Shown one piece after another: positions 1-44,549 of a stretch of DNA of 44,549 nt. Under the pieces are notes generated by a model. It was not told where the DNA came from and searched no databases. It saw only the letters and a list, made by a program, of their open reading frames with translations. Both the position numbers and the translations under genes were made by a program. Within the stretch, counting starts at the first letter, position 1; the number at the start of each line of letters is the position of its first letter. The stretch is from Defluviitaleaceae bacterium. Its GTDB lineage: Bacteria; Bacillota; Clostridia; Lachnospirales; WRAX01. Where the stretch lies: positions 1 to 44,549 of the forward strand of contig WQZZ01000003.1 of NCBI GenBank assembly GCA_009780485.1, read 5' to 3'.

Positions 1-945
1 GATGCCATGATAATTTTAAGGGCAGCAGAACCAAAGATTGAAGAAGCAAACCCCGAAAACCAGTTTCATTATCATTATAACAAAGGCATTACTTTAATGT
101 TTTTAGAAGATTACAAAGAAGCATTAAAGCACTTTTCTATGGCGTACGAGCTTGACTATGTTGAAGTAAAACCCCATGCACATATGATACATTATAATAT
201 GGGACTTTGTTATTCGAAGCTTGGTGTGTGTATTCGTGCTATAACCCAATTTGAGACAGCATATAATTTGTTGGATAGGGAACAACCTTATTATTTTGCT
301 ATGTTTATAAGCAACAATCTTAGTGTTGAATATATTAGGGCGAAGGATTTGGGGCTTGCAAAAAAGTACATAGGCAAAACCCTGCGTCTAGCAGTTAAAT
401 TAGGTGATGAGAAGCATTATCAGTTAGCCTTGCAAAATGCAGGCTGTGCTAACATAAAAGAAAATAAATTTGAAAAAGCATTGGAATATTTTGAAAAATC
501 ACTTGATTACGCAGAAGAAGGCGAAAACTCATACTTTGATACTCTATTCTATAAAATGTTTTGCCTAATCTCATCAAAACACCCATCTGCAGAATTGGAA
601 CTATCTGTAGCAATGCTAACATCTAAAGATAACAATCACTTCTTAACACTCTTTGTAGCCCTCTCTCATCTCAAAGACCTCAAAAGCGAAGAAGCTGAGG
701 ATTTCATCGAAAACTCAACCATCCCTTGGTTGATGAAAAGAAAGGAATACTACAGAATTCAGTACATATACCAGTTTATGATAAACCATTACACTGAACT
801 CGAATACGAGGATAAGGTACTTGAAGTACAAGCTAAATCCGATGACTTGTACAAAACAATGTTATTAGGAGGTGAAGAATTTGAAGAAGAAGAAGAAATT
901 GACTTGCTTTCTATTGACTTTAATACTAGTAAGCCTAGCGACTAA
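1..945 (+). CDS. TPR regulator of RRNPP-like type, 5'-truncated at the window edge; paralog of 33654-35003
   Basis: Frame open from base 1. TPR repeats (ALKHFSMAYEL, AITQFETAYNL, ALEYFEKSLDY). Long stretches are near-identical to the complete HTH-TPR on the minus strand. Confidence 0.85.
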   Translation, partial: DAMIILRAAEPKIEEANPENQFHYHYNKGITLMFLEDYKEALKHFSMAYELDYVEVKPHAHMIHYNMGLCYSKLGVCIRAITQFETAYNLLDREQPYYFAMFISNNLSVEYIRAKDLGLAKKYIGKTLRLAVKLGDEKHYQLALQNAGCANIKENKFEKALEYFEKSLDYAEEGENSYFDTLFYKMFCLISSKHPSAELELSVAMLTSKDNNHFLTLFVALSHLKDLKSEEAEDFIENSTIPWLMKRKEYYRIQYIYQFMINHYTELEYEDKVLEVQAKSDDLYKTMLLGGEEFEEEEEIDLLSIDFNTSKPSD

Positions 946-1030
946 CATGACCTTAATTGCAGAGGGACAAAGTCCACCTCTACCATACCCACACTCAATC
1001 ACCATCCCTTGTATAAACCTAGAACAATAA
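881..1030 (+). CDS. Secreted propeptide 1 (49 aa) MKKKKKLTCFLLTLILVSLATNMTLIAEGQSPPLPYPHSITIPCINLEQ
   Basis: GGAGGTG RBS at 868-874 and TTG start. Lys-rich N-region plus hydrophobic H-region. Overlaps the regulator 3' end. Four homologs in the window. Confidence 0.8.
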   Translation: MKKKKKLTCFLLTLILVSLATNMTLIAEGQSPPLPYPHSITIPCINLEQ

Positions 1031-1036
1031 CATACG

Positions 1037-1134
1037 GTAGGGGCGGGCATTGCCCGTCCCATTTCTGCTGGCACTAATCTCAATGGTTGTACGGCATTGC
1101 CTGTCGAACTGGGACGGGCAATGCCCGCCCCTAC
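1037..1134. repeat. GTAG-family REP doublet (REPIN-like), 98 bp
   Basis: GTAGGGGCGGGCATTGCCCGTCCCA ... TGGGACGGGCAATGCCCGCCCCTAC: an inverted pair, each unit GTAG plus a hairpin. Confidence 0.85.
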
Positions 1135-1258
1135 CACTCCACGCAACTGTCGATGGGGATAAACCATTACACTGAACTCGAATATGAGGATAAGGTACTT
1201 GAAGTACAAGCCAAATCTGATGATTTGTACAAAACAATGTTACTAGGAGGTGAAGAAT

Positions 1259-1408
1259 TTGAAGAAGAAGAAGAAATTGACTTGCTTTCTATTGACTTTA
1301 ATACTAGTAAGCCTAGCAACTAGCATAACCTTAATTGCAGAGAAACAGGGTCCACCTCTACCATACCCACACTCAATCACCATCCCTTGCATAAACCTAG
1401 AACAATAA
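1259..1408 (+). CDS. Secreted propeptide 2 (49 aa) MKKKKKLTCFLLTLILVSLATSITLIAEKQGPPLPYPHSITIPCINLEQ
   Basis: GGAGGTG RBS and TTG start. Intact frame. C-terminal 18 aa identical to propeptide 1. Confidence 0.78.
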   Translation: MKKKKKLTCFLLTLILVSLATSITLIAEKQGPPLPYPHSITIPCINLEQ

Positions 1409-1415
1409 CATACTG

Positions 1416-1513
1416 GTAGGGGCGGGCATTGCCCGTCCCATTTCTGCTGGCACTAATCTCAATGGTTGTACGGCATTGCCTGTCGAACTGGGACGGGCAA
1501 TGCCCGCCCCTAC
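1416..1513. repeat. GTAG-family REP doublet, 98 bp
   Basis: Identical to 1037-1134. Confidence 0.85.
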
Positions 1514-1607
1514 CATATAATACCATACCATTCCATGTAACTGTCGATGGAGATAAACCATTACACCGAACTCGACGATAAGGGTAAGGTGCTTAAAATA
1601 CAAAATA

Positions 1608-1630
1608 GTAGGGGCGGGCATTACCCGCCC
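1608..1630 (+). repeat. Single REP
   Basis: GTAGGGGCGGGCATTACCCGCCC. Confidence 0.75.
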
Positions 1631-1685
1631 TATTTATGCGGACGACACCATGAAGCATTTAATTCAAAAAAGATTAAAAAAGTCC

Positions 1686-6934: not shown

Positions 6935-7751
6935 CCAAAAAAAGATTTACTTGTGTGAGCAACAGGCTAATAGGCTGTGGAGTGTAGTAATGGGGCTTGG
7001 ACAGGAAGCGGCAAGGGCTGGCAATTTCGGGCGTGGTTACGCCGTTGTTGCCCACGAAGCTCGCTTTGTGGCAGAAAAGCTTTTCGAGGGAATTGCTAAT
7101 GCGAAATTTGATGATGATGGCGACCAGCTATTTTACCTCGTCAAAGAATTAGCCTTGGAGTTGGGTTATTTAGCAGTTAATGGTGAATTGGAGATTTTAA
7201 GGATTACGGAAACCGACAATACCATGAGCAACAACAAGGCTATGCTTGTGTGTGTGTCGGAATTGCAAGCTGTCGCCTTTGCCTTGGCAGAGATTGTGGA
7301 AGAAGAAATTTGGCACAAATCTAGCATTATCACAGAAGTCAATAACCCAATCAAGTCCTGTCGTGTGTTTATCCATGCTTTTCGCTTTAATGTGGGTGGC
7401 GTGGCACTTGTGGAGCATTGTGCCAATGTTTTAGAGGTCATCCACAGCCCAAAGATGGATGATGCGGGTAAAAATGTGATACTTAGGGGCAAGGAGTTGC
7501 CTATCGTGGACTTGTATCAGCGATTTGGACTTAATGTGTCTGCTGATGTTGGTTCTGTGATGATTATTAAGTCAAAAGGCGGTAATTTGGCTGTGCCAAT
7601 TGATATGGTGGACACAAGTCCATTTTTCTACACACCAATCGGACAAAATGTTGCCCCAGAAGCTGGCAATATCTTCGCTGACTACTCAAGAGGGTGCTGG
7701 GATGCAGTTGGTGGCGGTCAAATGATATTCCTCGACTGGGAAAGACTATAA
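6927..7751 (+). CDS. MCP signalling-tip/CheW-like fusion protein
   Basis: EAARAGNFGRGYAVVAHEAR (MCP hairpin tip) and C-terminal LRGKELPIVDL...LAVPIDMV (CheW-like). RBS AAGGAGG. Confidence 0.7.
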   Translation: MTNQKKIYLCEQQANRLWSVVMGLGQEAARAGNFGRGYAVVAHEARFVAEKLFEGIANAKFDDDGDQLFYLVKELALELGYLAVNGELEILRITETDNTMSNNKAMLVCVSELQAVAFALAEIVEEEIWHKSSIITEVNNPIKSCRVFIHAFRFNVGGVALVEHCANVLEVIHSPKMDDAGKNVILRGKELPIVDLYQRFGLNVSADVGSVMIIKSKGGNLAVPIDMVDTSPFFYTPIGQNVAPEAGNIFADYSRGCWDAVGGGQMIFLDWERL

Positions 7752-7756
7752 CCTTG

Positions 7757-7869
7757 GTAGGGGCGAGCATTGCTCGCCCCATTCCTGTTGGCAATATTCT
7801 TTGGGGCTGGACGGTATCGTCTACATAAGTGGGGCGGGCAATAACGGTTTTGACGGGACCCGCCCCCAC
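7757..7869. repeat. Diverged REP doublet
   Basis: GTAGGGGCGAGCATTGCTCGCCC carries a compensatory change. The right REP has an extended loop. Confidence 0.75.
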
Positions 7870-7925
7870 CAGTGGTTCGTTTGTATAAAATTGTAAATGC
7901 CCGCAACACATATTGTGTAACCATC

Positions 7926-33292: not shown

Positions 33293-33298
33293 GGTATG

Positions 33299-33396
33299 GT
33301 AGGGGCGGGCATTGCCCGTCCCAGTTCGACAGGCAATGCCGTACAACCATTGAGATTAGTGCCAGCAGAAATGGGACGGGCAATGCCCGCCCCTAC
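33299..33396. repeat. GTAG-family REP doublet, 98 bp
   Basis: Reverse complement of 1037-1134. Confidence 0.85.
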
Positions 33397-33403
33397 CAGC
33401 ATG

Positions 33404-33544
33404 TTATTGTTCTAGGTCTATGCAAGGTATGATAATTGAGGTTGGAATTGGTAAGGGTTCGCTCTCTTCCTGTGCAATCACAGTAATGCTAGTTGCGGTT
33501 ATCACTAGCAGAGTTAACAGGAGACAAGTTAATTTCTTCTTCAT
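33404..33544 (-). CDS. Secreted propeptide 4 (46 aa) MKKKLTCLLLTLLVITATSITVIAQEESEPLPIPTSIIIPCIDLEQ
   Basis: RBS AGGAG, ATG start, signal-peptide pattern, homologous to propeptides 1-3. Confidence 0.82.
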   Translation of the reverse strand: MKKKLTCLLLTLLVITATSITVIAQEESEPLPIPTSIIIPCIDLEQ

Positions 33545-33562: not shown

Positions 33563-33709
33563 TTATTGTTCTGTGTCTAGGTCTGGGCAAGGTATAATAA
33601 TTGAGGATGGAATTGCTACGGGTTCGTTTTCTTCCTGCGCAATCACAGTAATGCTAGTTGCGGTTATAACTATCAGGGTCAATAGGAGGAAGGCTAGTTT
33701 CTTCTTCAT
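33563..33709 (-). CDS. Secreted propeptide 3 (48 aa) MKKKLAFLLLTLIVITATSITVIAQEENEPVAIPSSIIIPCPDLDTEQ
   Basis: RBS AGGAGGTG, ATG start, overlaps the regulator 3' end, signal-peptide pattern. Confidence 0.82.
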   Translation of the reverse strand: MKKKLAFLLLTLIVITATSITVIAQEENEPVAIPSSIIIPCPDLDTEQ

Positions 33710-35003
33710 AATCTTCACCTCCTAGCAACATTATTTTGTATAAGTCATCTGACTTGATTTGTATTTCAAGTAACCTTTCCTTGTTTCCAAGTTCGGTGTA
33801 ATGTTTTTCCATCAAATTATATATGTATCTAATTCTGTAGTATTCTTTTGTTTGCATTAAGTGAGGAATTGCTATGTTTTCAATAAAGCGTCGTGATTCA
33901 CTTTCTTCAAGCGTTAGGATATGAGAAAGGGATGTAAAAAGCAAGTAAAAATGGCTGTCATCTTGTGACAATAGTTTTGCAACGGCTATTTCATCTTCGG
34001 CAAATGGGTTTTTTAATGAGATAAAGCAAATTATTTTGTGATATAAAATATCAAGGAAAGAACGTTCTTCTTTTGTTACAAATGTAAAGGCTTCTTCAAA
34101 GTATTCCAATGCTTCTTTGAATTTGTTTTCTTCCATGAGGACACTACCCGAATTTTGCAAGGCTCTTCTCTGGCGTATTCCGTCTCCCAACTTCAATGCT
34201 AGACGCATTGCATCATTTATGTACTTTTTAGCAAGCCCCAAATCTCTCGCCCTAATGTAATTAACACTAAGGTTATTGCTTATAAGCATGGCAAAGTAAT
34301 AAGGCTGCTCCCTGTCCAACAAATTATATGCCGTCTCATATTGAGATATAGCACGAATACACATACCAAGTTTTGAATAACAAACCCCCATATTATAATG
34401 TATCATATGTGCGTGGGGTTTCACTTCAACATAATCAAGCTTGTACGCCGTAGAAAAGTGTTTTAGTGCTTCTTTATAATTTTCTTCAAATATCAAGATA
34501 GTGCCTTTATTAAAATGATAATGGTACTGGTTTTCGGCATTTGCTTCCCCAATCTTTGCTTCTGCTTCCTTTAAGACTGGTATAGCCTTGTCAACCCTGT
34601 TTACGTTAATAAAATATTTAACAAGAACCATATTATAAAGCATAGACAAATCCAAACCAACAGGCAAAACATCATACTTTTCTAAATGAAACTTATCATG
34701 GTATGCCCTTGCATCTTTTAATTTTCCATTACTTATACGGGTTCTCCACAAACGCAAAATCTTTTCAACATCACCATCACCAAATCTATCGGCTGGTTCC
34801 ATTTTGTCTACCTTATAAAATTCTAAAATTTTTCTTATTTGTTCTTTTGTATACTTGTCTTTACCTTTTTCAATCACCTCTATGGTTTTTACATCCCAAC
34901 CTAAAATCTTCGCAACCTCTTCTTGGTTGCCACCCATGGTTTTGTAAATATACTGCACAATAGAAGCAGTAGGCATTTTAAGGTCTAATGGCATACTTAT
35001 CAT
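33654..35003 (-). CDS. HTH-TPR transcriptional regulator (RRNPP-like), 449 aa
   Basis: N-terminal XRE-like HTH (NQEEVAKILGWDVKTIEVIEKG) plus a TPR array. RBS GGAAGGGGG. Confidence 0.85.
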   Translation of the reverse strand: MISMPLDLKMPTASIVQYIYKTMGGNQEEVAKILGWDVKTIEVIEKGKDKYTKEQIRKILEFYKVDKMEPADRFGDGDVEKILRLWRTRISNGKLKDARAYHDKFHLEKYDVLPVGLDLSMLYNMVLVKYFINVNRVDKAIPVLKEAEAKIGEANAENQYHYHFNKGTILIFEENYKEALKHFSTAYKLDYVEVKPHAHMIHYNMGVCYSKLGMCIRAISQYETAYNLLDREQPYYFAMLISNNLSVNYIRARDLGLAKKYINDAMRLALKLGDGIRQRRALQNSGSVLMEENKFKEALEYFEEAFTFVTKEERSFLDILYHKIICFISLKNPFAEDEIAVAKLLSQDDSHFYLLFTSLSHILTLEESESRRFIENIAIPHLMQTKEYYRIRYIYNLMEKHYTELGNKERLLEIQIKSDDLYKIMLLGGEDYEEETSLPPIDPDSYNRN

Positions 35004-35064
35004 TATGTAACAACCCCCTTCCAAAAAATTCTGTAAATATAACACTTATTTACTATCTAAGCAC

Positions 35065-35093
35065 AATATACCACACCATCCGACCCATGTCAA
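35065..35093 (-). promoter_or_regulatory. sigmaA promoter of the HTH-TPR gene
   Basis: TTGACA-17-TATATT with TG, conserved at 44199-44227. Confidence 0.75.
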
Positions 35094-35206
35094 GAAAAAT
35101 TTACAATTTTTTTGAATTTTTTTTCGACAATTTTTTTGGCTTAAAATCCTCTTTACAAATTGATGCCTTTGGTGTAACATTAAAGGCGAAAGGGTGGCGA
35201 ACGCCT

Positions 35207-40340: not shown

Positions 40341-40555
40341 ATGAAACACTCCTTTCATTTTTTATTTGCAGTCTCTATAGAAGTTGACAACAACTACCCG
40401 TTTTTATTATGTTACCTACTGGCTTAAAGCTCATTGGGTTTGGGTGGCAAACTGCTGTCTTTCTTCTCAGCGACTGCTTCCAAAACGAATGAACTTGGTT
40501 TTTCATTCGTTTTGGAAGAAGCCTCTGGGGTTTGAGGGTGTTGTCTGTGGGTTTG

Positions 40556-40578
40556 GGGCGGGCAATGCCCGCCCCTAC
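40556..40578 (-). repeat. Single REP
   Basis: GGGCGGGCAATGCCCGCCCCTAC. Confidence 0.8.
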
Positions 40579-40682
40579 CAGGGTGGGTGGTTATGGGTCG
40601 GCGTTTGGGTTGATTGTTGGTTGGCATGTGGTGTTGGTTATGGGTGGCGTGATTTGATTGATGGGGGGGTGACTGTGTTTTG

Positions 40683-44056: not shown

Positions 44057-44198
44057 AAAACAGCCTCCTTATGCTATTAATTTCTTAATAAGACATAGTT
44101 TTTCCACGAAACTGCAAGCAATGCCCGCCAAATTTTGTTATAGAATTTTAAGCCAAAAAATTTGTCGAAAAAAAATTCGAAAAATTTGTAAATTTCCC

Positions 44199-44227
44199 TT
44201 GACAGGGGTCGGATAGTGTGGTATATT
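44199..44227 (+). promoter_or_regulatory. sigmaA promoter of the third HTH-TPR paralog
   Basis: TTGACA-17-TATATT with TG. Confidence 0.75.
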
Positions 44228-44285
44228 GTGTTATGTAGGAAAGAAATGCTATATTTACGGAATATTTTTGGAAAGGGGTAATTAT

Positions 44286-44549
44286 ATGTCGATACATATG
44301 CCTGTAGACCTCAAAATGCCCACCGCTAATATTGTGCAGTATATTTACAGAACCCAGGGCGGCAACATAGAAGAAGTTGCGGAGATTTTAGGCTGTGATG
44401 TAGCAACCATTGAAAAAATTGAAGCGGGCAAAGAACAATACAAAAAACAACAAATAAGTAAGATTTTAGAATTCTATAAAGTAGACAGATTAGAACCACC
44501 CACTAGGTTTAGTGATGGTGAAGTTGAAAGAATTTTAAGTTTGTGGAGA
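44286..44549 (+). CDS. HTH-TPR regulator paralog, 3'-truncated at the window edge (not in the ORF track)
   Basis: MSIHMPVDLKMPTANIVQYIYRTQGGNIEEVAEILGCDVATIEKIEAG...ILSLWR aligns with the N-terminus of 33654-35003. Confidence 0.85.
   Translation, partial: MSIHMPVDLKMPTANIVQYIYRTQGGNIEEVAEILGCDVATIEKIEAGKEQYKKQQISKILEFYKVDRLEPPTRFSDGEVERILSLWR

Follow-up and report, generated by a model that had tools for sequence, protein, structure and literature searches.

A probable NprR-like RRNPP cassette with tandemly duplicated, cysteine-bearing propeptide genes in an uncultured Defluviitaleaceae bacterium

Positions 1-1640 of the 44,549-nt window (the whole stretch of DNA analysed here, contig C3 of a 2.04-Mb Defluviitaleaceae assembly with 169 contigs, 86% completeness and 43% G+C) carry the end of a receptor gene, two small propeptide genes and copies of a GC-rich hairpin repeat. 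The receptor gene of this locus, locus 2 (1..945, + strand), lacks its 5′ end, with the contig starting inside it, and encodes 312 aa of a tetratricopeptide repeat (TPR) domain. Its product is 64% identical to the complete receptor of another locus in the window, locus 1, and 83% identical to a paralogue on contig C35 of the same genome. Probably, positions 1-1640 represent the 3′ portion of a quorum-sensing cassette of an NprR-like RRNPP type, in which the peptide gene has recently been duplicated in tandem and the Cys of the peptides is an ordinary, unmodified residue.

Propeptide gene A (881..1030, + strand) has a TTG start 64 nt before the end of the receptor, overlaps the receptor stop (943-945) in another frame and encodes 49 aa. 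Its Shine-Dalgarno sequence, AGGAGG (866..871, + strand), lies within the last codons of the receptor. The product has a Lys-rich N-terminus and a hydrophobic core, followed by a 22-aa pro-region ending PYPHSITIPCINLEQ, and from these features a signal-peptidase cut after L-I-A is likely. Propeptide gene B (1259..1408, + strand) is a tandem copy of A, also of 49 aa and with a TTG start, and has its own Shine-Dalgarno sequence (1244-1249); AGGAGG stands 8 nt 5′ of the TTG in both genes. The two TTG starts (881 and 1259) align with the ATG starts of the locus-1 peptide genes. A preliminary description of this DNA, made from the letters alone, had reported a shared C-terminus for the two peptides, and this was confirmed: both lie on the + strand, measure 49 aa and end HSITIPCINLEQ. 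As described there, the last 18 aa are identical, with TGT and TGC as the Cys codons, and the amino-acid changes (N22S, M23I, G29K and S31G) are confined upstream, all before residue 32. Three synonymous changes accompany these four. By nucleotides, 7 differences fall in the first 93 nt and 1 in the last 57 nt, a skew that is not significant (Fisher p = 0.16). A lipoprotein reading of the N-terminal L-T-C was rejected; this Cys precedes the hydrophobic stretch and is absent from locus-1 peptide 1.

The propeptide pair stems from a recent 378-bp tandem duplication and not from an old design with two signals. The repeated unit extends from the receptor's final 55 codons through the peptide gene to a 101-nt hairpin repeat, and 13 of 256 positions are mismatched between 780-1035 and 1158-1413. 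Within it, the duplicated receptor 3′ end (1158..1323, + strand; the last 55 codons, without a receptor body) has 7 mismatches to 780-945 over 166 nt. The five of them that lie 5′ of the peptide start (807, 834, 840, 846 and 865 vs 1185, 1212, 1218, 1224 and 1243) are all synonymous in the receptor frame. This synonymous-only pattern may mean that the copies come from two once-functional alleles, or that the stretch is constrained for another reason. A partial third copy (1523..1640, + strand) holds the junction and about 50 nt of the receptor 3′ fragment, then a short hairpin (1608-1635), and no peptide gene.

Hairpin repeat copy 1 (1036..1136, + strand) is GC-rich, with 38-nt arms and a predicted RNA fold of -79.9 kcal/mol (z = -9.5). 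Copy 2 (1415..1515, + strand) is 100% identical to it, as is a copy on the - strand (33297..33397) directly 3′ of locus-1 propeptide 2. The hairpin is a dispersed repeat, present in the genome in 25 copies of at least 80 nt that are 81-100% identical. Four of them, of which three lie in the window and one at C35:1033-1133, are 100% identical, and each directly follows a peptide gene of the close receptor clade. The receptors beside these four are only 64-83% identical to each other, and the identity of the hairpins suggests gene conversion or recent site-preferring insertion. Because no T-run follows it, the hairpin is not a typical intrinsic terminator, and a search of Rfam gave no family for it and only sub-threshold miRNA-like matches. 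A partial copy of the repeat lies at window 40554-40580. Also, a second GC-rich hairpin-like repeat occupies window 7690-7910, where small ORFs are mirrored on both strands and the 101-nt element is unmatched by blastn.

The duplication probably arose by unequal recombination at the hairpin repeat. In sequencing run X1, a 166-nt contig bridges hairpin copy 1 into copy B (1108-1273) with no mismatch, at a depth of 9.2 compared with 7.1-7.4 in the flanks; therefore, the junction into copy B is present in the reads. In run X2 the flanks are covered and no contig spans 1163-1315, where identical copies would collapse and contigs cannot show absence. Because the copies are recent, the identical ends of A and B say little about selection, and they would mostly reflect recent copying. 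Copy B most likely raises the peptide dose rather than adding a second signal, because the presumed mature parts of A and B are identical.

Locus 1 carries a complete receptor gene (33654..35003, - strand), which encodes 449 aa with HTH_3, matched at the cut-off, and a TPR domain. The genes for propeptide 1 (33563..33709, - strand; 48 aa, ending IIIPCPDLDTEQ) and propeptide 2 (33404..33544, - strand; 46 aa, ending IIIPCIDLEQ) lie 3′ of it. The ORFs of the window, 46-49 aa in length, share a Lys-rich start, a hydrophobic core and an A-x-A-like site. I-P-C and the terminal EQ were found in all four peptides of the two loci, as the earlier reading had it, while its longer core, S-I-x-I-P-C-x-[DN]-L-E-Q, is exact in three of the four, the last reading D-L-D-T-E-Q.

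The affiliation of the receptors has been evidenced by domain, profile and fold matches. TPR_12, TPR_2, TPR_1 and TPR_8 of Pfam exceed their cut-offs in both receptors. The helix-turn-helix (HTH) domain was judged on the locus-1 paralogue, the locus-2 receptor lacking its 5′ end; here the HTH_3 match of 23.0 bits equals the 23-bit cut-off (E 8.5e-5), and the family profile also matches small HTH proteins. A profile built from 26 family members matched NprR (5dbk, E 1.8e-41; 4gpk, E 9.4e-41) in one stretch, profile positions 74-418, which spans the whole TPR domain, and matched Rap proteins with E values of 1e-22 to 1e-18. A single-sequence search of solved structures returned generic TPR proteins only and no NprR. 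Further, the AlphaFold2 model of the locus-1 receptor is all-helical (mean pLDDT 89, pTM 0.85), and its best Foldseek matches are NprR and Rap (TM-score normalised to target 0.68-0.78). These observations bear out the claim of a second receptor locus with propeptides of the RRNPP kind, and by profile and fold the receptor is a distant NprR/Rap homologue, apparently a sister or distant branch of NprR and not an orthologue.

The peptide-contact residues of NprR, listed in the accessible part of PMC3763537, were mapped by hand onto the locus-1 receptor with a chain offset of 59, checked on Y223/F225, S274/N275 and N306/D309. By this manual mapping, NprR Tyr193/Asn194, Asn275 and Asp309 correspond to Y203/N204, N284 and D318, which are invariant in four close paralogues and visible in the locus-2 receptor. 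By peptide and contacts, with 4 of 8 contacts kept, the system is unlike the NprR-NprX subfamily. A complex prediction for locus-1 receptor residues 70-435 with propeptide 2 scored 0.02 against a mark of 0.32 and is evidence neither way.

The same gene order recurs across the family. In the 33 receptor loci examined, 34 leader-bearing small ORFs were recognized in 25 cassettes, and no peptide was recognized in the other eight (L012, L014, L018, L019, L020, L021, L025 and L034). At L020 and L021, ORFs 530 and 333 nt downstream, respectively, did not resemble leader peptides and were left out of the counts, as was a 25-aa leader-only ORF at L025. All 34 peptides, judged from sequence features, begin with a region rich in Lys/Arg, followed by a hydrophobic stretch and a cut site of small residues, and in each of the 25 cassettes the peptide gene starts between -64 and +31 nt from the receptor stop. 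Two to four tandem peptide genes are found in 6 of 25 cassettes (loci 1 and 2 of the window, L011, L026, L032 and L035). L026 (G007:C10, 844-1495, - strand) has four tandem propeptide genes at 213-219-nt spacing with one receptor, their tails reading CPEIEE (two copies), CPDMEE and CPDMEG, which is the strongest peptide-gene amplification in the family.

The mature signal had been placed at the C-terminus. This is plausible, as the changes spare the last 14 residues: the C35 peptide and its orthologue at L041, a metagenome contig, are distinguished by four residues, none of them among the last 14, and across the two close comparisons (A vs B and C35 vs L041) 8 of 8 amino-acid changes lie upstream of that stretch. 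Locus 2 and C35 share PYPHSITIPC, and the Cys is followed by I-N in the former and by T-D in the latter. The pattern is consistent with a mature peptide that lies in the last 14 residues and perhaps includes the Cys and the residues that follow. The signal need not be the very end, as the case of NprX illustrates, where the minimal active heptapeptide is internal to the C-terminal part (accessible text of PMC3763537). For QspB, the portion of PMC7376267 available to us maps active fragments to a specific C-terminal region.

The preliminary description had called the Cys invariant, a claim it tied to conservation in further homologues. An ad hoc core pattern, P-x-(x)-[IV]-x-x-[PDT], is recognizable in 21 of 34 peptides, and the residue after this core is C in 10, P in 4, I in 3, and F, V, T and Q in one each. 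Invariance holds only in the close clade, where the Cys is present in 8 of 8 peptides (four in the window, and C35, C34 and L041), the C34 peptide having D-C instead of P-C. It is also present in one distant lineage, at L026 of genome G007 (ending IVVPCPEIEE), whose receptor is 24% identical. V takes its place in the same-genus genome G002 (ending IVLPVDESED), and P, I, V, Q, F or T does so, following I-x-[ILV]-P, in relatives outside the close clade; in sum, 11 of the 21 core-bearing peptides have a residue other than C at the site. On this distribution, the claim of invariance fails by the refuting condition that the preliminary description had set for it, and the Cys appears typical of the small peptide family and not essential across it.

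Cys is nevertheless abundant in these propeptides. It is borne by 26 of 34 peptides in 19 of 25 cassettes and makes up 42 of 913 post-leader residues (4.6%), compared with 1.1% in genome ORFs of at least 200 aa, an approximately fourfold enrichment. The 19 of 25 cassettes compare with about 26% expected (binomial p = 3e-7), a value that overstates the effect, as kin are not independent. Our search of full-text literature returned nothing on Cys-rich RRNPP propeptides, with the supplements of PMC10075063 outside its reach.

Two further claims about the Cys, that it is unusual for linear RRNPP peptides and that it may indicate a modification, found no support in the form given. A precedent exists in ComS17-24 of Streptococcus thermophilus, LPYFAGCL (accessible part of PMC5131891). 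In the 86%-complete genome, where a missing match does not prove absence, searches for AgrB (PF04647), for SPASM (PF13186) of radical-SAM maturases, and for DSBA and Thioredoxin_4 (DsbA and BdbD-type proteins) gave no match, and the controls for these family searches matched in known genomes. Also, no modifying gene adjoins locus 1 or locus 2. Most likely, the Cys is an ordinary, unmodified ligand residue that was inherited in the lineage and is tolerated because the habitat is anoxic.

From the observed receptor homology and fold, gene arrangement, leader features and Opp-like binding proteins, we infer a cycle of peptide export, processing, re-import and binding. The cassette would encode a cytoplasmic HTH-TPR receptor and, next to it, the 49-aa pre-propeptide. 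The latter would be exported by Sec and cut by signal peptidase after L-I-A to give a 22-aa pro-peptide, which extracellular proteases may trim to a short linear peptide around P-x-S-I-x-I-P-C, possibly with part of the acidic tail. An Opp-type permease would re-import this peptide, and its binding in the TPR groove of the receptor would change transcription. Three SBP_bac_5 (Opp/Dpp-type) binding proteins exceed the cut-off in the genome, a finding of presence only.

Several observations weigh against this reading. Identity to NprR is only 17-19%, and 4 of 8 NprR contacts are lost, Arg126 being shifted by one position, Glu241 replaced by Arg, and Ser274 and Asn306 differing. An ordinary residue does not explain the approximately fourfold, family-wide enrichment of Cys, and the long tails of the relatives G009 and G013 hold 4-6 Cys, unlike a short linear pheromone. 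With a genome 86% complete, undetected enzymes are not proven absent. In addition, run X1 may be the sample from which the window was assembled, in which case the bridging contig is not independent support for the duplication. A thiol-dependent property or redox role of the Cys stays a minority possibility because Cys is enriched family-wide.

The rivals to an NprR-like cassette with an ordinary Cys and a recently duplicated peptide gene differ in what they doubt. One of them, distinctly unlikely in our judgement, makes the Cys chemically functional, as a free thiol, a disulfide-dimer switch, a metal ligand together with its acidic flanks or the site of another thiol modification, the peptide then signalling redox state along with density. 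Besides the enrichment (26 of 34 peptides, 19 of 25 cassettes), it can draw on the acidic residues beside the Cys near the C-terminus in many lineages (CPEIEE, DGECE, DSDC, DDEC and ELCE), on I-I-P-C-P-[DE], kept across two genera whose receptors are 24% identical (locus 1 and G007 L026), on the 9 peptides from these two lineages whose Cys stands exactly 5 residues from the C-terminus, and on the multi-Cys, CxxC-type tails of G009 and G013. This is met by the P, V, Q, F, T or I at the site in 11 of 21 core-bearing peptides, by the 8 of 34 peptides with no Cys after the leader, by the lack of matches to AgrB, SPASM radical-SAM, DsbA or BdbD-type genes in the 86%-complete genome and of modifying genes beside either locus, and by the unmodified Cys pheromone LPYFAGCL, known from the part of PMC5131891 available. 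As a more detailed version, and a long shot, the pheromone would be active only as a free thiol; the signal would be silenced or altered by oxidation near the micro-oxic gut wall or by capture of metal in the tail with its Cys and acidic residues, and tandem amplification would set its dose. If true, this would be a thiol-gated RRNPP signal, with one peptide reporting both cell density and redox state.

The small ORFs might also be receptor-controlled secreted effectors, for example antimicrobial or adhesive, and not ligands at all, which we find very improbable. Tails of 39-48 residues rich in Cys or Asp (G009_L023, G013_L015 and L022), compared with classical pheromones of 5-10 aa, and the 2-4 tandem copies in 6 of 25 cassettes, as for effector dosage, speak for effectors. 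The strict receptor-then-peptide order in 25 of 33 receptor loci, peptides that diverge in step with the receptor paralogues, and the absence of exporter, immunity or maturation genes beside the window loci are at odds with it, and the 22-aa pro-regions agree in size with RRNPP propeptides (Qsp precursors of 39-50 aa, as given in the accessible part of PMC7376267). Whether copy B matters is a separate question: it could be a silent, strain-specific recombination remnant, or sit on another molecule, leaving this locus with effectively one peptide. We hold this to be unlikely, given an intact ORF, Shine-Dalgarno sequence and start codon, a hairpin without the T-run of a typical intrinsic terminator, tandem peptide genes that are common in the family (6 of 25 cassettes) and a junction found in reads-derived contigs at flank depth. 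Yet copy B has no receptor body upstream and follows a very stable hairpin (-79.9 kcal/mol), and no promoter-like site of at least 9/12 stands between this hairpin and the start of gene B, the only promoter-like matches of the duplicated unit lying inside the peptide genes (899-927 and 1277-1305). The degenerate third copy (1523-1640) is already without a peptide, and the orthologous L041 locus and the C35 paralogue each have a single peptide gene.

Among known systems, NprR-NprX of the Bacillus cereus group (4gpk, 5dbk) is alike in its N-terminal HTH, matched here at the cut-off in locus 1, and nine-TPR-type domain of about 430-450 aa, in the gene for a small Sec-type propeptide that directly follows the receptor gene on its own strand, and in the peptide-anchoring Tyr-Asn, Asn and Asp, which are kept here. 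It differs in that the core P-x-S-I-x-I-P-C with its acidic tail is unrelated to the SKPDIVG type (accessible part of PMC3763537), no nprA-like target gene is adjacent here, and several paralogues are present per genome here, some with tandem peptide genes. Qsr-Qsp of Clostridium acetobutylicum (Kotte et al. 2020, PMC7376267) resembles the family, as far as the available text goes, in the multiple HTH-TPR paralogues per genome (eight there, at least eight here), each receptor being followed by a precursor of 39-50 aa with a charged start, a hydrophobic leader and a C-terminal active region; this likeness is one of description. Conserved residues of Qsp are Leu, Pro and Trp, and no Cys is reported in that portion of the text, where the word 'cysteine' occurs 0 times.

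The receptor shares the NprR/Rap clade with Rap, and phage Rap 8rsv and 8rst are among the best fold matches, whereas Rap proteins are without the HTH. The Rap-Phr systems with duplicated pheromone motifs (Felipe-Ruiz et al. 2024, PMC11343458, accessible part) share a duplicated pheromone-coding unit, but the duplication lies inside one propeptide there and whole peptide genes stand in tandem here. ComR-ComS (XIP, Streptococcus thermophilus) shares an RRNPP-type cytoplasmic sensor and, in the accessible text of PMC5131891, a linear unmodified peptide with a Cys near its C-terminus; ComR is of the Rgg-like branch and is not among the fold matches listed at ranks 1-49, and ComS is of the leaderless type, with a sequence unrelated to the peptides here. 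The family is unlike Agr thiolactone peptides, with no AgrB match in the 86%-complete genome and a cytoplasmic HTH-TPR receptor in place of a histidine kinase, and unlike sactipeptides and ranthipeptides (radical-SAM thioether RiPPs, ribosomally synthesized and post-translationally modified peptides), with no SPASM maturase match in the genome.

The sequencing runs that hold the window stretch are recorded as termite gut metagenomes, with no RNA run listed among them, and Spo0A exceeds the family cut-off in the genome (342.7 bits); the host is an uncultured, endospore-forming member of the Bacillota. Its own 2-Mb genome has at least eight receptor loci, plus fragments at contig ends and one remnant: N-terminal receptor fragments end the window (44292..44549) and C38, and the remnant is on C4. 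The fragment in the window (44292..44549, + strand) covers the N-terminal 86 codons of a paralogue that shares 72% identity with locus 1, and the contig end truncates it. Both ends of the window fall inside receptor paralogues, and because of this the assembly breaks there. Contig breaks inside receptor paralogues are seen at window 1-945 and 44292-44549, at the start of C35 and at the end of C38. Over their first 45 residues the fragments on C3 and C35 are identical, and therefore the assembly collapses there; the full locus-2 receptor is unreadable from any one contig. In-frame stops were observed in three receptor paralogues (G000:C25:11813-13051, one TAA; G000:C49:5765-7063, one TAG; G002:C6:7057-8313, one TGA and one TAG), which are possibly decaying copies.

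A receptor match was found in 9 of 41 genomes searched. With the own genome excluded, matches occur in 8 of 19 genomes of the same family, which the collection represents by only 20 genomes, and in none of the 21 genomes that stand for 21 other families of the order. Relatives at least 58% identical are confined to the own genome and L041, a 3.1-kb contig whose receptor is 69% identical to locus 1 and 95% to C35. In a receptor search of 5.8 billion proteins (8000 scored), 4 proteins reached E <= 1e-10, all from the own genome or L041. A scan of metagenome contigs gave 8 loci, of which L041 (69% identical) and L042 (30%) are family members; L043-L048 gave weak TPR matches and were left unused. 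Scanning genome contigs with the close-paralogue alignment yielded 107 pattern matches with no relative among them, and with the G002 receptor only 5 weak TPR matches, all in unrelated phyla. The peptide homologue search of the 5.8 billion proteins gave no candidate; peptide genes are apparently uncalled by gene finders, and the search is thus uninformative on rarity.

The promoter block upstream of the locus-1 receptor (35004..35135, - strand) has TTGACA, a 17-nt spacer, TATATT and an A-rich upstream stretch, and is nearly invariant among receptor paralogues. Copies of about 95 nt were seen at 35004-35135 (-), 44157-44279 (+), C38:16770-16843, C34:2474-2537 and C4:31009-31069; the block is far more conserved than the receptor coding sequence, its 17-nt spacer is invariant, and the C4 copy precedes merely a short receptor-start remnant. 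The conservation hints at shared or auto-regulation. Neighbours of both loci, with names read from translations, are housekeeping genes: a uracil phosphoribosyltransferase-like gene (upp) and a uracil permease-like gene at locus 2, and a tRNA methyltransferase-like gene and a ThrE-like gene at locus 1. At 8 of 33 receptor loci, a gene for a small AbrB/MazE-type DNA-binding protein with a C-terminal four-Cys ribbon lies 3′ of the peptide gene, on the same strand and within a few hundred nt (L006:2476-2703, L007:2718-3020, L010:3106-3375, L018:2937-3173, L025:3251-3496, L027:109-369, L035:3400-3606 and L042:1813-1992). PF04014 was matched by 4 of 4 such proteins tested. The gene is absent from the two loci of the window, and its product is a possible output of more distant cassettes.

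On present evidence, these findings do not change how RRNPP systems are thought to work, and the locus is a rare, lineage-restricted branch of the NprR/Rap clade and a new example of a known RRNPP system. Catalogues of such systems draw mainly on cultured Firmicutes with complete genomes; a large survey used complete genomes only, with metagenome-assembled genomes still to be mined (accessible part of PMC10075063). To these, the locus adds this branch of the clade, found in a gut bacterium that is uncultured, with at least eight paralogous loci, tandem peptide genes and unusually Cys-rich propeptides. Further, one peptide site holds C, P, V, Q or F across the family, a natural variant series in which the role of a thiol in a pheromone could be probed.

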